20,000 nt of DNA from an uncultured virus (IMG/VR IMGVR_UViG_3300025708_000562) (lineage: Duplodnaviria; Heunggongvirae; Uroviricota; Caudoviricetes): IMG/VR virus record IMGVR_UViG_3300025708_000562. One strand, written 5' to 3'. The position numbers and the translations under genes are program-made. The notes under the pieces were generated by a model. It searched no databases, was not told where the DNA came from, and was given only the letters and a program-made list of their open reading frames with translations. This document shows positions 5,694 to 15,325 of the stretch, in pieces (positions within the stretch are counted from its first letter, which is position 1; each line of letters opens with the position of its first letter).

Positions 5694-6026
5694 CTACGGT
5701 ATAATCCTGAATTCATAACCGTTTTGGCGGGCTATGTTCACTAAGGCAGTAATAGCTCGCCGCAGGGCCTTCACCCACGCTTGATGCTCCCCGACGGTGG
5801 AATAGTCAAACTCCATACCCAGCTGGCCCTTGCTTCTGGCCACATAACACATATCAGGACGCAACTCTGGCCATTCACACACATATACATGATACATATA
5901 GCCCAGCATGTTGATGATACCTATCGTGATACCATCTTCCCTCCCCCTCCTGAACCAATTCTCGGGTTGCTTATGTATCGCGAACGCTCGACCGTGCTTT
6001 CTTATGCTAACGACGATGCTTTCCAT
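5694..6026 (-). CDS. Tandem paralog family, copy 4
   Basis: Start reassigned to ATG 6026 after AAGGAGG. MESIVVSI..HKQPENW..WPELRPDMCY..H-x7-RRAITALVNIARQNGYEFRIIP. Confidence 0.88.
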   Translation of the reverse strand: MESIVVSIRKHGRAFAIHKQPENWFRRGREDGITIGIINMLGYMYHVYVCEWPELRPDMCYVARSKGQLGMEFDYSTVGEHQAWVKALRRAITALVNIARQNGYEFRIIP

Positions 6027-12787: not shown

Positions 12788-13911
12788 AATACGATGCAAT
12801 CCTAAATTACGCCACGCGATATGCACAGGAGTATTTCCCTAATGTTGCATTCCGCGAGGGCACTGGCGCGTATGATTTGCTCATCAAGGCGTTCTGTATC
12901 CTGGCGTATGACTTATTCAGCAAACTATCGCGGCATCTAGGCAATTACGCCGTGTCCAATTGGGTTGATCTGCCTGACAGCCTGGTAGACGCCTATGCTA
13001 GTATTTGGCTGCTATCACGCTCTCCGGGAGGGATCGCTACCGGCCGGGTGCGCATCTACTTCAGCGAGCCCACGGCGGTGTCCATCCCGGTCGGCTTTAG
13101 AGTTCTATCCAATAATGGCTTGAGATTCGTCGCCGATAACGAGTACTCCTTCAGCGAAAACCGCATGCGCAGTCAGCGCGAGGGCAGCCGCTATTACTGT
13201 GACATCACCGTTGTGGCTGAAGCTTCTGGTGAAGAGTACAATGTCGGCGTGGGGGCTATTACTGATATCGAGAGCGCATTCTACGCGCCATGGACTAGCA
13301 TCACTAATCAACACGCCTTTACTCAGGGGGTTAAAAGAGAAGACAACGCCGCATTCGGCAGACGCATTACCGAGTCGGTCAATACCCGCCAGCTTATCAT
13401 CACCGCTGCTAGCGCAGAGACCACGCTGAGAGACGCGCTGCCCACGATTCTCGAGATAGACGTCGTCGGTTTTGGCGATCCAGCAATGCAGCGTGACCTT
13501 ATGCATGAAGTCATGCCAGGCTCGGGACTGCCATATGTCAGGGTTGACTTCGCACGCAAGACACGCGGCAACAGTCTATACAACCCTAGCGAGGCTTACT
13601 TCGGATCGCTGCTAGCATCATCCGATGGCCTGCCAAATCCGAAAGACCTAGTCGAAGGGTTGGAGGAGGCGGATCAAGAAAACTACTCAGCGCTAGGCGT
13701 GGAGGATCTAGTCCTTGCCACTGCACATGGCGGGGAGATCATCTTCGATGGATTTGACTCCAACAAGGCTAGCTTCGACCCCGGCAAATGGATATGGACT
13801 GATAGCGGCCAGCCCTATGGGCAGAAGATATACGGCAACAGCATTTACATCACACGCGAGGGCAAGCTCCGCCTAGGAGCTGAAGACTGGAAGAGGGCGA
13901 CGATATCATGA
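12784..13911 (+). CDS. Baseplate J / gp47-like wedge protein
   Basis: Classic motifs R.PG..ATGRVRIYF...VSIPVG and VVAEASGEEYNV..GAIT...ITN..AFTQG..REDN..F..RI. Start at ATG 12784 (GGAGG RBS, ATGA overlap). Confidence 0.85.
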   Translation: MKYDAILNYATRYAQEYFPNVAFREGTGAYDLLIKAFCILAYDLFSKLSRHLGNYAVSNWVDLPDSLVDAYASIWLLSRSPGGIATGRVRIYFSEPTAVSIPVGFRVLSNNGLRFVADNEYSFSENRMRSQREGSRYYCDITVVAEASGEEYNVGVGAITDIESAFYAPWTSITNQHAFTQGVKREDNAAFGRRITESVNTRQLIITAASAETTLRDALPTILEIDVVGFGDPAMQRDLMHEVMPGSGLPYVRVDFARKTRGNSLYNPSEAYFGSLLASSDGLPNPKDLVEGLEEADQENYSALGVEDLVLATAHGGEIIFDGFDSNKASFDPGKWIWTDSGQPYGQKIYGNSIYITREGKLRLGAEDWKRATIS

Positions 13912-14099
13912 GCGATAAGCTAGCGATCGAGGTTGAAGATACCGACACCACTATCAGAGTGTCCGCAGATGGCAATGTTGTGGTATGGCGTGGCAATCAG
14001 CCATCCGAGCTGCTAAGTCGACTGGTGCTGGTGGCCGACGAGAATTGTCCCACGCTATTGCAGGTAATACCTAGCGCGCGTTTGGGAGGAGTAAAATAA
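13908..14099 (+). CDS. 63-aa hypothetical protein
   Basis: ATGA overlap with the baseplate J gene; ends right at a terminator hairpin. Confidence 0.6.
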   Translation: MSDKLAIEVEDTDTTIRVSADGNVVVWRGNQPSELLSRLVLVADENCPTLLQVIPSARLGGVK

Positions 14100-14129
14100 A
14101 AAGAGGGGCCGGTTATTAGCCGGCCCCCC
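14093..14129 (-). terminator. Intrinsic terminator (- strand)
   Basis: Stem GGGGCCGG (14105-14112) / CCGGCCCC (14120-14127). On the - strand it is followed by UCUUUUUAUUUU. Confidence 0.8.
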
Positions 14130-14630
14130 AAGAGGTGGTTAGCCCCACCACGGGTAGGGGCTAACCTGGATGTCGAGAGAGCGGGAGCTCCCGTGGCCCC
14201 TCCGCCTCTCGCCGTTAAGTTTTTCGCAGCGCCTTAACGGACGCGCCGTCTGCGGGTTAAGGTCTCGCCGCAGCTCAAAGCCGGTTGCCCGCCCAGACGG
14301 GTCCGGCGTAATACCGATGGGCCGATGGGGCTTGAGCACAGGGATGGGGCCCCGTGCTCCTCCACAAACCACGCGGCTTGGCCCCGCCGCCTTCTCCAGA
14401 TGATCCATGCAGTTTGTGGTGCCACATGGACCTCGGGCTTGAGCACTTTAGCCCCCGAGGCAGCTGGCGGGCTGGCGTATGCCAGCCCGCCCACCAACCT
14501 TAAAACCGGCCCATACCCGCTTTCAGTGTGGCTGGAGCACCTCACACATACTCGCGGGTTGCCGAGACGGGCCTTTCACCCGGTCGGGAGTCCCTATCCC
14601 TGACACCATGTCAGGCCGGCTCCTGTCTCC
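14130..14630 (-). ncRNA. Candidate large, highly structured non-coding RNA (~500 nt) of unrecognised class
   Basis: No credible ORF. At least 10 stems and several loop-loop complementarities. G-U pairs form only on the - strand. Flanked by TATAAATATAAT upstream and a terminator downstream. Confidence 0.7.
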
Positions 14631-14675
14631 ATTATATTTATAACACAAGCACGGTATGGTTTAGTAAAAAATACA
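14631..14675 (-). promoter_or_regulatory. AT-rich promoter for the candidate ncRNA
   Basis: The - strand reads TGTTATAAATATAAT, containing TATAAT (14631-14636), the T4-late-type TATAAATA (14635-14642) and GTTATAAA, in an otherwise GC-rich region. Confidence 0.6.
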
Positions 14676-14684
14676 CCAGAGGTT

Positions 14685-14797
14685 GGGGCCGGCCGACACC
14701 TTGTCAGCCAGCCCCGAGATTAGCCCGCGTGGCAGCGCGGGCCATGGAGAGTGCAAGGGCTTGCAAAGAACCAGAGCCCCCACGGGTTGGTTCTTTT
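14685..14797 (-). other. Cluster of four hairpins 3' of the 14807-15325 gene (terminator, processing element or ncRNA extension)
   Basis: - strand GGGGCUGGCUGACA-AGG-UGUCGGCCGGCCCC (14 bp with two U-G pairs), plus GCCCGCG/CGCGGGC, UGCAA/UUGCA and AAAGAACCA/UGGUUCUUU stems. Confidence 0.55.
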
Positions 14798-14806
14798 AAA
14801 AGCCAC

Positions 14807-15325
14807 TCAGTCCGATATCTCTTCATCGTCTAGCTCGCCCAGGTGGCGCGCTATTTCCCACGATAGCATCCGCATCTCATGGCTGCCGTAACGCTCAAGC
14901 TCGCGGTAGCGTTCCCCGCAAGTTGGGATCAGCTCGTGCGTCCTAGGCTCGTAGTAGTACTTCCGAAACCAACCACGCGACATGCGGTCCTGCTCACGCG
15001 ACACGCTTAAGCCGTAGAATGGGAACCACGTTCCCGGCATGCCGCTGTTGTACCCTGACGACTTGTAGAACGGCTGGCGCCAATGCTCATCGCTGCTAAC
15101 ACTAGTCAACAGCAATACGCGCATGGGGCGCTCAGCTACCGTTATGGTGTCACGAGAGATATCCACGCGGACAACATAGCGCTGCTCGCGGTCGTTGTGC
15201 TCTGGAAATACCAGCAGCTTATCATGTACAAGCGGCTCCCAATCATGCGGCTCACCGAATAGCCATGAGTTAATAGCCTCGGTGTGCGTATCCCAGGAGC
15301 CATCTGCTTCAAGAGGGTTGGACAT
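14807..15325 (-). CDS. Hypothetical protein with PFYKSSGYNSGMPGTWFPFYG motif
   Basis: ATG 15325 after GGAGGGAG; 172 aa; conserved-looking aromatic/Gly motif. Confidence 0.75.
   Translation of the reverse strand: MSNPLEADGSWDTHTEAINSWLFGEPHDWEPLVHDKLLVFPEHNDREQRYVVRVDISRDTITVAERPMRVLLLTSVSSDEHWRQPFYKSSGYNSGMPGTWFPFYGLSVSREQDRMSRGWFRKYYYEPRTHELIPTCGERYRELERYGSHEMRMLSWEIARHLGELDDEEISD

Follow-up and report, generated by a model that had tools for sequence, protein, structure and literature searches.

The minus strand of an intergenic stretch at positions 14103 through 14624 encodes an expressed, heavily folded RNA of ~520 nt, and the account that best fits the evidence, to which we assign a probability of about 0.7, is that the stretch is an autonomous, accessory, moron-like noncoding RNA (ncRNA) gene of a sludge phage, whose product is likely a trans-acting structural RNA, a scaffold or a decoy. 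The source is an uncultured phage of ~140 kb from activated sludge with direct terminal repeats, from which 20,000 nucleotides were analyzed (herein the window, meaning that whole stretch of DNA). Its nearest record is an IMG/VR genome (herein G001; 139,828 bp, direct terminal repeats, 54.5% GC), which carries the same stretch at 26842 through 27403 with 99% identity to the window. Two convergent blocks of genes, ending on the plus strand at 14099 and on the minus strand at 14807, leave between them the gap of ~700 bp in which the RNA locus lies. A baseplate-J/wedge protein (12712 through 13911; Pfam E 2e-9; PHROG 6 E 4e-20) and sigma-factor-like proteins are encoded in the window; the neighbor proteins at 13908 through 14099, 14807 through 15346, 15525 through 16190, 16196 through 16483, and 16589 through 17158 match no Pfam, PHROG, or NCBIfam family at curated cut-offs. 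The unit, its signals, and its immediate surroundings are as follows, in window coordinates.

14103 to 14624, minus strand: the RNA itself, ~515 to 525 nt, with the 5′ end placed at 14619 through 14624 and the 3′ end within the U-tract, slightly below 14103.
14622 to 14681, minus strand: promoter module, with TATAAT at 14636 through 14631 inside the box TGTGTTATAAATATAATGGAG (14647 through 14627) and AT-rich sequence upstream.
14093 to 14129, minus strand: intrinsic terminator, a 10-bp, 9-GC hairpin (14129 through 14103) and then TTTTTATTTT; probability of the helix in the minimum free energy (MFE) fold, 0.94.
14134 to 14681, minus strand: candidate present/absent cassette, consisting of the promoter and the RNA body without the terminator.
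14684 to 14796, minus strand: block of three hairpins between the promoter and the upstream 179-aa gene, probably the 3′ UTR and terminators of that gene and not part of the RNA.

Both transcription signals that an earlier note had read from the minus strand were recovered: the TATAAT is perfect, and the terminator hairpin does run into a U-tail. The 21-nt promoter box occurs as a single copy in the window and is absent from 200 shuffles; a consensus scan returned no −35 match and no full sigma-70 site at the promoter. A length of 58 nt of the module (14679 through 14622) is repeated with 92% identity at 5899 through 5957 of G002, a closely related fragment in which the copy lies ~6 kb further on, ~600 bp past the equivalent of the window's right end. 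The core box is also found at 98226 and 134934 of G001, one of these sites preceding a gene with a ribosome-binding site. Because it is reused at three other sites in G001 and G002, we regard the box as a phage promoter type. The G002 copy is followed by a ~290-nt GC-rich leader, an ORF of ~100 codons, and a terminator; within the leader, a CUGGCAUGGUGUCAG hairpin resembles the 5′ hairpin of the RNA, and this region could, judging from its sequence, be another structured RNA or a leader.

The stretch is present in 20 of the 24 public runs listed (16 of them RNA runs), and at least half of its words are found in 13. Nearly all of the runs are activated-sludge metatranscriptomes from 2017 to 2018, and their 18 study codes may be one campaign. 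Four of the 24 (X1 through X4) were aligned to window positions 13500 through 15300. With runs picked for containing the stretch and a single depth per contig, which is a poor measure of expression and carries no strand or true-end information, the RNA run X3 gave a 516-nt contig covering exactly 14105 through 14619 at a depth of 827 (flanking contigs, 16 and 13.7); the RNA run X4 gave a 366-nt contig over 14181 through 14523 at 626 (flanks, 2.7 to 8.4); and the RNA run X1 gave contigs within the RNA at ~19,800 to 25,000 (upstream gene, 204), together with a 1478-nt contig running from the downstream genes into the 3′ part of the RNA at 1428. The profile of X2, which was judged probably DNA, is flat: an 11.5-kb contig crosses the region at a depth of 61, and the next contig has 65. 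An abundant, stable transcript would be expected to produce just such a pattern, a 50- to 200-fold excess limited to 14105 through 14619 in three RNA runs and missing from the DNA-like one. A transcription start 7 to 12 nt past the TATAAT agrees with the end of the X3 contig at 14619; as the X1 and X4 contigs stop inside the RNA or at adapters, and only X3 stops at 14619 with no loose end, the 5′ end is placed mainly by the position of the promoter. Among the X1 through X4 contigs, there is no back-joint of the kind a circular RNA would leave. An X2 contig that matches 14518 through 14553 with five mismatches was set aside, such a match being near chance expectation for an assembly of that size by our own arithmetic.

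The locus has the attributes of an autonomous transcription unit: its own promoter, its own terminator, a discrete 516-nt contig in an RNA run, and a presence that varies between relatives (one weak empty-site contig). A structured minus-strand ncRNA of ~500 nt had been proposed for 14130 through 14630, and in expression, heavy folding, and size (~520 nt) this is borne out; the left edge moves, since the transcript continues to 14103.

The MFE fold of the RNA (14103 through 14620) has −272.6 kcal/mol and 173 pairs, 17 of which are G·U, with 67% of the bases paired. Compared with shuffled sequences, the minus-strand fold (−280.7 kcal/mol) has a z-score of −6.09, and 0 of 100 shuffles are as good; the plus strand has a z-score of −3.13, and the G001 allele folds with −5.27. 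When the MFE of 520-nt tiles from both strands of the whole window (n = 300) was regressed on GC, the four most over-folded tiles all overlapped the stretch, and all on the minus strand. Several long-range helices of the MFE have pair probabilities >0.9. The elements of the fold, and the three copies of a motif that lie within it, are listed here.

14466 to 14491, minus strand: perfect 11-bp hairpin with a 4-nt loop, GGCGGGCTGGC/GCCAGCCCGCC (arms at 14466 and 14481), found by repeat search; probability 0.99.
14137 to 14166, minus strand: 3′ hairpin directly upstream of the terminator, a perfect 10-bp stem GGTTAGCCCC/GGGGCTAACC (arms at 14137 and 14157), found by repeat search; probability 0.97.
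14334 to 14359, minus strand: hairpin GAGCACGGGG/CCCUGUGCUC, pair probability 1.00, the only helix with comparative support.
14505 to 14514, minus strand: 5′ arm AUGGGCCGGU of the long-range 10-bp helix, pairing with 14326 through 14317; probability 0.94.
14317 to 14326, minus strand: 3′ arm AUCGGCCCAU of the same helix, pairing with 14505 through 14514.
14212/14233: stem CCGTTAAG/CTTAACGG.
14246/14294: stem CCGTCTG/CAGACGG.
14431/14454: stem CCTCGGG/CCCGAGG.
14404/14425: stem TCCATG/CATGGA.
14515/14554: stem ACCCGC/GCGGGT.
14599/14609: stem CCTGACA/TGTCAGG.
14529 to 14540, minus strand: motif copy GUGCUCCAGCCA in a hairpin loop, the 5′-most of three GUGCUC(A/C)AGCC copies (family D1).
14435 to 14446, minus strand: motif copy GUGCUCAAGCCC on the 3′ side of a hairpin loop.
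14328 to 14339, minus strand: motif copy GUGCUCAAGCCC overlapping the 3′ arm of the 14334 through 14359 hairpin and changed by a U insertion in the G001 allele.

All eight stems named in the earlier note were located in the sequence, and its long-range helix, 14317 through 14326 with 14505 through 14514, forms 10 pairs on the minus strand, including one G·U at which the plus strand has a mismatch. Three loop complementarities had further been read as pseudoknots or kissing loops. They exist as perfect Watson-Crick runs of 7, 8, and 7 bp; as pseudoknots they fare less well, since by rough arithmetic chance alone should give a 518-nt RNA at 65% GC around twelve perfect complementarities of 7 nt and three to four of 8 nt, and since the MFE places parts of all three segments in other helices. 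The pseudoknots are thus present in sequence and putative in structure. A search for internal duplication gave only short repeats of 8 to 14 nt. Within G001, the GUGCUC(A/C)AGCC motif is confined to this RNA, in its three copies.

Across the RNA, the window and the G001 and L007 alleles are identical except for three 1-nt indels. In the G001, L007, X2, and X3 alleles, an extra G in the 5′ arm of the 14334 through 14359 hairpin lies opposite an extra U in the 3′ arm, which turns the 10-bp helix into one of 11 bp with a new G·U pair. A G·U insertion pair argues for selection at the RNA level on the minus strand, as correction of a DNA palindrome would give G-C; we estimate the odds of two independent insertions landing opposite each other in this way at ~0.2%. 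The window allele is carried by X1 and X4, and the other allele by X2 and X3, both with an additional A>C at 14493 and X2 also with a 6-nt insertion behind 14222. The third indel, a 1-nt deletion at 14382, falls in the loop of a local hairpin GCGGC-GGGGCCAA-GCCGC, although in the MFE this G-run takes part in a weak helix (p 0.44). The 6-nt insertion sits apically in a hairpin, where the MFE draws only a weak 2-bp stack (p 0.62), and the SNP at 14493 maps to a junction. Further variants were deduced from clusters of pseudo-proteins, their nucleotide changes being worked back from codons by eye: in these, the terminal pair of the long-range helix is altered, a helix predicted at probability 0.93 loses its CCUU arm to a 6-nt deletion (CUUAAC), a third helix has its terminal pair broken, or the sequence is replaced beyond RNA position ~450. 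Such variants count against the full structural model.

The 5′ side varies more grossly. L007 lacks 93 nt including the promoter, the P0019 form has the promoter fused to RNA position ~58, the P0009 form has lost everything up to RNA position ~91, and an abundant X1 form has a different sequence upstream of 14614. Because these variants do without the promoter or the first ~57 to 91 nt, including the 5′ arm of the closing helices, the model may be in error on the 5′ side, or this portion may not be needed. We therefore take the core, ~14171 through 14530, as the solid part of the structure, the 5′ and 3′ closing helices of the MFE being predictions.

The indels hit every overlapping ORF of at least 50 aa on either strand, both alleles are abundant in RNA runs, and no ORF is both kept open and conserved among relatives. 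Three pseudo-ORFs served as queries against protein collections that included sets of 5.8 billion and 1.84 billion sequences. One search gave a single match among 31 candidates, a self-copy; another, with 207 candidates, gave three matches, none of them below 94% identity; and the 1.84 billion representatives gave three, two of them self and one a repeat-inflated weak match (P0011). The data indicate that the RNA is not translated. P0011 itself (320 aa, on a 648-kb ENA contig; E 1.4e-5) was rejected as a homologue: it agrees with one reading frame of the 3′ domain of the RNA at 40% over 47 aa, three times, and because its score is summed over three 58-aa tandem repeats, with single stretches at ~33 bits each, we treat the match as chance.

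Around the RNA, the locus is plastic. The flanks are mosaic in G001, and the RNA module stays 99% identical. Upstream, ~950 bp of the window (14968 through 15919) are swapped for unrelated sequence of similar length (L022 4604 through 5569); the 179-aa gene lies mostly within the replaced segment, and its last 53 codons alone are shared with G001. In G001 only, a 269-aa RCC1-repeat gene (L022 5859 through 6703; G001 25858 through 26702) would sit upstream of window position 14679; it matches Pfam RCC1_2 in seven stretches (E 2.5e-68), has a DNA period of 117 nt in 6.8 copies, and is flanked by two copies of the hairpin block (14679 through 14797). Also in G001 only, a 1646-nt AT-rich IS200/IS605 element lies directly past the T-run of the terminator (L022 7409 through 9054; G001 27408 through 29053), its insertion point falling between ~14095 and 14096 in window coordinates. 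The element encodes a 78-aa IS200 TnpA fragment (NF033573, E 2e-19) and a 372-aa TnpB (NF038281, E 7e-192); G001 has four tnpB genes. A 130-nt X3 contig joins 14133 straight to 14682, as a genome without the promoter and the RNA would; its shorter side is 29 nt, slightly under the caution line of the alignment method, and that 29-mer is unique in G001. Given the mosaic flanks and this empty-site contig, the unit looks like a moron-type accessory cassette.

The distribution of the RNA is narrow. GenBank phages, IMG/VR, GTDB genomes, and one metagenome scan yielded no homologue with less than ~97% nucleotide identity. Blastn against GenBank phages, and searches of IMG/VR with an exact 26-mer and with the neighbor proteins, returned near-identical copies or nothing; pseudo-ORF scans of IMG/VR gave no diverged homologue, and 0 of 600 pattern matches in GTDB genomes were confirmed. 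As all copies found are near-identical, family-level covariation is absent. Matches to a two-motif pattern in at least 123 genomes proved to be unrelated repeats and genes, and nhmmer against loci L024 through L148 matched G001 only. Relatives of the baseplate J protein in metagenome contigs (L009, 67%; L010, 41%) are followed downstream by protein genes and not by the RNA, L009 having small protein genes at the syntenic place. We found no printed description of the RNA, and the record number is absent from the searched part of the supplements of PMC10690425. The stretch is best read as a phage ncRNA gene that is new, moron-like, and restricted to one lineage.

In the Rfam comparison proposed in the earlier note (Rfam 15), none of 4227 families reached gathering score anywhere in the window; the positive control is the tmRNA of the phage, which this search recovers at G001 68150 through 68463 with 83 bits. 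At E≤10, positions 13900 through 14900 give 11 weak matches (asX1, CC3664, microRNAs, suhB, and others), all at least 23 bits below gathering score, which we treat as chance since they lie mostly on terminator-like hairpins. That the earlier note saw no hallmarks of a tmRNA, RNase P RNA, or SRP RNA agrees with the lack of an Rfam model match to any of them and, for tmRNA, with a negative ARAGORN result. No Rfam family model matches for 6S RNA, and none for the guide RNAs of TnpB or IscB (omega RNA, HEARO); the window neighborhood contains no tnpB or iscB, and the tnpB beside the RNA in G001 belongs to the 1646-nt insertion that the window lacks.

Among known large RNAs, ROOL averages 581 nt, has a multi-junction fold, is borne by phages and prophages, often near tRNAs, spans three phyla, and is given no function in the passages cited (PMC5737381). 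GOLLD is described there as large, ornate, and often phage-borne, also with no function assigned (PMC5737381; 10.1101/2024.12.08.627333), and the second of these sources has both ROOL and GOLLD forming RNA-only nanocages (10.1101/2024.12.08.627333). The present RNA resembles ROOL in its large size, its multi-junction fold, which here is a prediction, and its carriage by a phage; unlike ROOL, it matches no model at E≤10, has no nearby tRNA, and is seen only as near-identical copies. Unlike GOLLD, it is smaller and has neither an Rfam match nor tRNA adjacency: the window contains no tRNA, and in G001 the RNA lies at 26.8 to 27.4 kb and the nearest tRNAs at 69 to 73 kb. Of the earlier suggestion of a new large structured phage RNA of the GOLLD or ROOL type, the first half stands and the kinship is unsupported, as only size and phage residence are shared and neither model appears at E≤10. 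Our verdict is that the RNA family is new, though of a known sort. Another parallel is the crAss-like phage phi14:2, for which the cited passage reports its own RNA polymerase and intergenic long noncoding RNAs above most protein-coding genes (10.1101/2020.03.07.982082). Abundant intergenic phage ncRNAs with no purpose assigned in that passage are the point of likeness; the lineages are unrelated as far as tested, and the comparison is one of description only, the passage giving no RNA structure.

RNAs of the 6S and CsrB/RsmZ type are abundant, stable, trans-acting structured RNAs that bind a protein, some of them through repeated loop motifs. The present RNA differs in having no family model match, in its motif, GUGCUC(A/C)AGCC in place of GGA, and in the number of copies, of which there are only three, one being altered in a common allele. 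The data indicate that transcription starts ~7 to 12 nt downstream of the perfect TATAAT in a promoter module of phage type, and that the ~520-nt transcript, for which the folding model predicts a closed, multi-branched, GC-rich structure, ends at a strong intrinsic terminator. They also indicate that the RNA accumulates far above the neighboring phage mRNAs and is untranslated. In the mechanism we propose, this stable structural RNA would most likely work in trans, serving as a scaffold or as a decoy that sequesters a protein of the host or of the phage in the course of infection, with the three GUGCUC(A/C)AGCC elements as candidate binding sites. A trans-acting structural role is suggested by an RNA that is abundant, compact, free-standing, and dispensable. 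In the rest of G001, the longest complementarity to it is 15 nt and terminator-like, and complementary 12- to 13-mers occur at chance frequency. With no antisense target, no enzyme or guide partner gene fixed alongside, and motif copies only inside the RNA, our tentative preference is that the RNA serves a protein as scaffold or decoy; the idea of repeated binding sites is weakened by the altered motif copy in the G001 allele. A more far-reaching version, which we consider doubtful, makes the RNA the first representative of a new class of large phage RNAs that play an active part, biochemical or architectural, and are carried as RNA-only morons subject to gain and loss. Such an RNA might be a self-assembling particle, or a decoy disabling host defense, host transcription, or the RNA-decay machinery, and its carriers would be phages equipped with an RNA polymerase and sigma-like factors of their own.

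The stretch might instead be a strongly transcribed functionless or selfish insert, a GC-rich spacer caught between a promoter and a terminator whose hairpins shield it from RNases. Restriction to one near-clonal lineage would suit such an insert, as would the rearranged 5′ region of several variants, the one contig without the cassette, and the siting of the locus at an insertion hotspot. We nevertheless hold it unlikely, given a base pair gained in compensatory fashion through G·U, a minus-strand fold far beyond shuffles and every other tile of the window, and a core that stayed 99% identical while both flanks were replaced. The G·U compensation, pointing as it does to RNA-level selection, also counts against a remnant of DNA-level or mobile-element origin (a nonautonomous IS200/IS605 derivative or a recombination hotspot) in which transcription is incidental. 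The RNA has no similarity to the rest of G001, tnpB flanks included, and the window has it with no tnpB nearby, so that we rate this origin as very unlikely in spite of the four tnpB genes of G001, one of them in the insertion sequence directly past the terminator, and of a candidate empty site that is clean-edged and has a perfect hairpin 3 nt from one edge.

Assembly with its own copies into an RNA-only multimer, the functional type of ROOL and GOLLD, would agree with the size of ~520 nt (581 nt being the ROOL average in the passage cited, PMC5737381), the phage residence, and the high abundance, and the palindromes CGGGAGCUCCCG and GGGGCCCC could serve as self-contacts. Palindromes are, however, expected at 65% GC, neither Rfam model matches at E≤10, and the tRNA neighborhood is missing; we consider this type improbable. 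Least credible of all is an mRNA or leader for one or more small peptides, for instance through a 33-codon frame from the AUG in CUGACAUGG. This AUG does have a Shine-Dalgarno-like AGGAG ~10 nt upstream, but it is missing in the L007 variant, the longer ORFs are broken by the indels between alleles, and searches covering 15 billion proteins turned up no protein family. An autonomous, accessory ncRNA gene remains the reading we prefer.

Few molecules in microbiology are as poorly understood as GOLLD, ROOL, and similar large, highly folded phage RNAs, of which there are not many examples. The RNA described here is short enough for transcription and imaging and is very abundant in a well-sampled engineered ecosystem, and its natural alleles, among them one with an inserted base pair, several with 5′ deletions, and perhaps a null, could be used as a ready-made mutational series. 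Should a partner or phenotype be found, it would show how an RNA-only accessory gene benefits a phage; should there be none, the RNA would stand as a well-documented orphan ncRNA.

Several other features of the phage were recorded. A single 2037-aa protein (G001 112448 through 118561, minus strand) contains both Rpb2 (beta-like) and Rpb1 (beta′-like) RNA polymerase domains, and there are at least three sigma-70-like proteins (window 9514 through 10485 and 50 through 2065, both plus strand; G001 124036 through 124815, minus strand); with this gene content, transcription is probably in the hands of the phage itself. An intein splicing domain is present in the large terminase subunit (G001 91613 through 93988, minus strand; GpA ATPase domain). 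The phage tmRNA (G001 68150 through 68463; Rfam RF00023, 83 bits) is missed by ARAGORN, and G001 has six tRNAs (Pro, three Leu, Lys, and Gln) at 69355 through 72883 and 136001 through 136076. Among the tRNA genes, a plus-strand gene at G001 71875 through 72369 encodes the N-terminal domain of a dATP/dGTP diphosphohydrolase (PF18909, E 4e-28), which may hint at modified DNA bases. A 176-aa NYN-domain protein, a predicted ribonuclease (E 3e-15), is encoded at G001 38776 through 39306 on the plus strand, and a window gene of equal length (3446 through 3976, minus strand) is, by that length, its probable counterpart.
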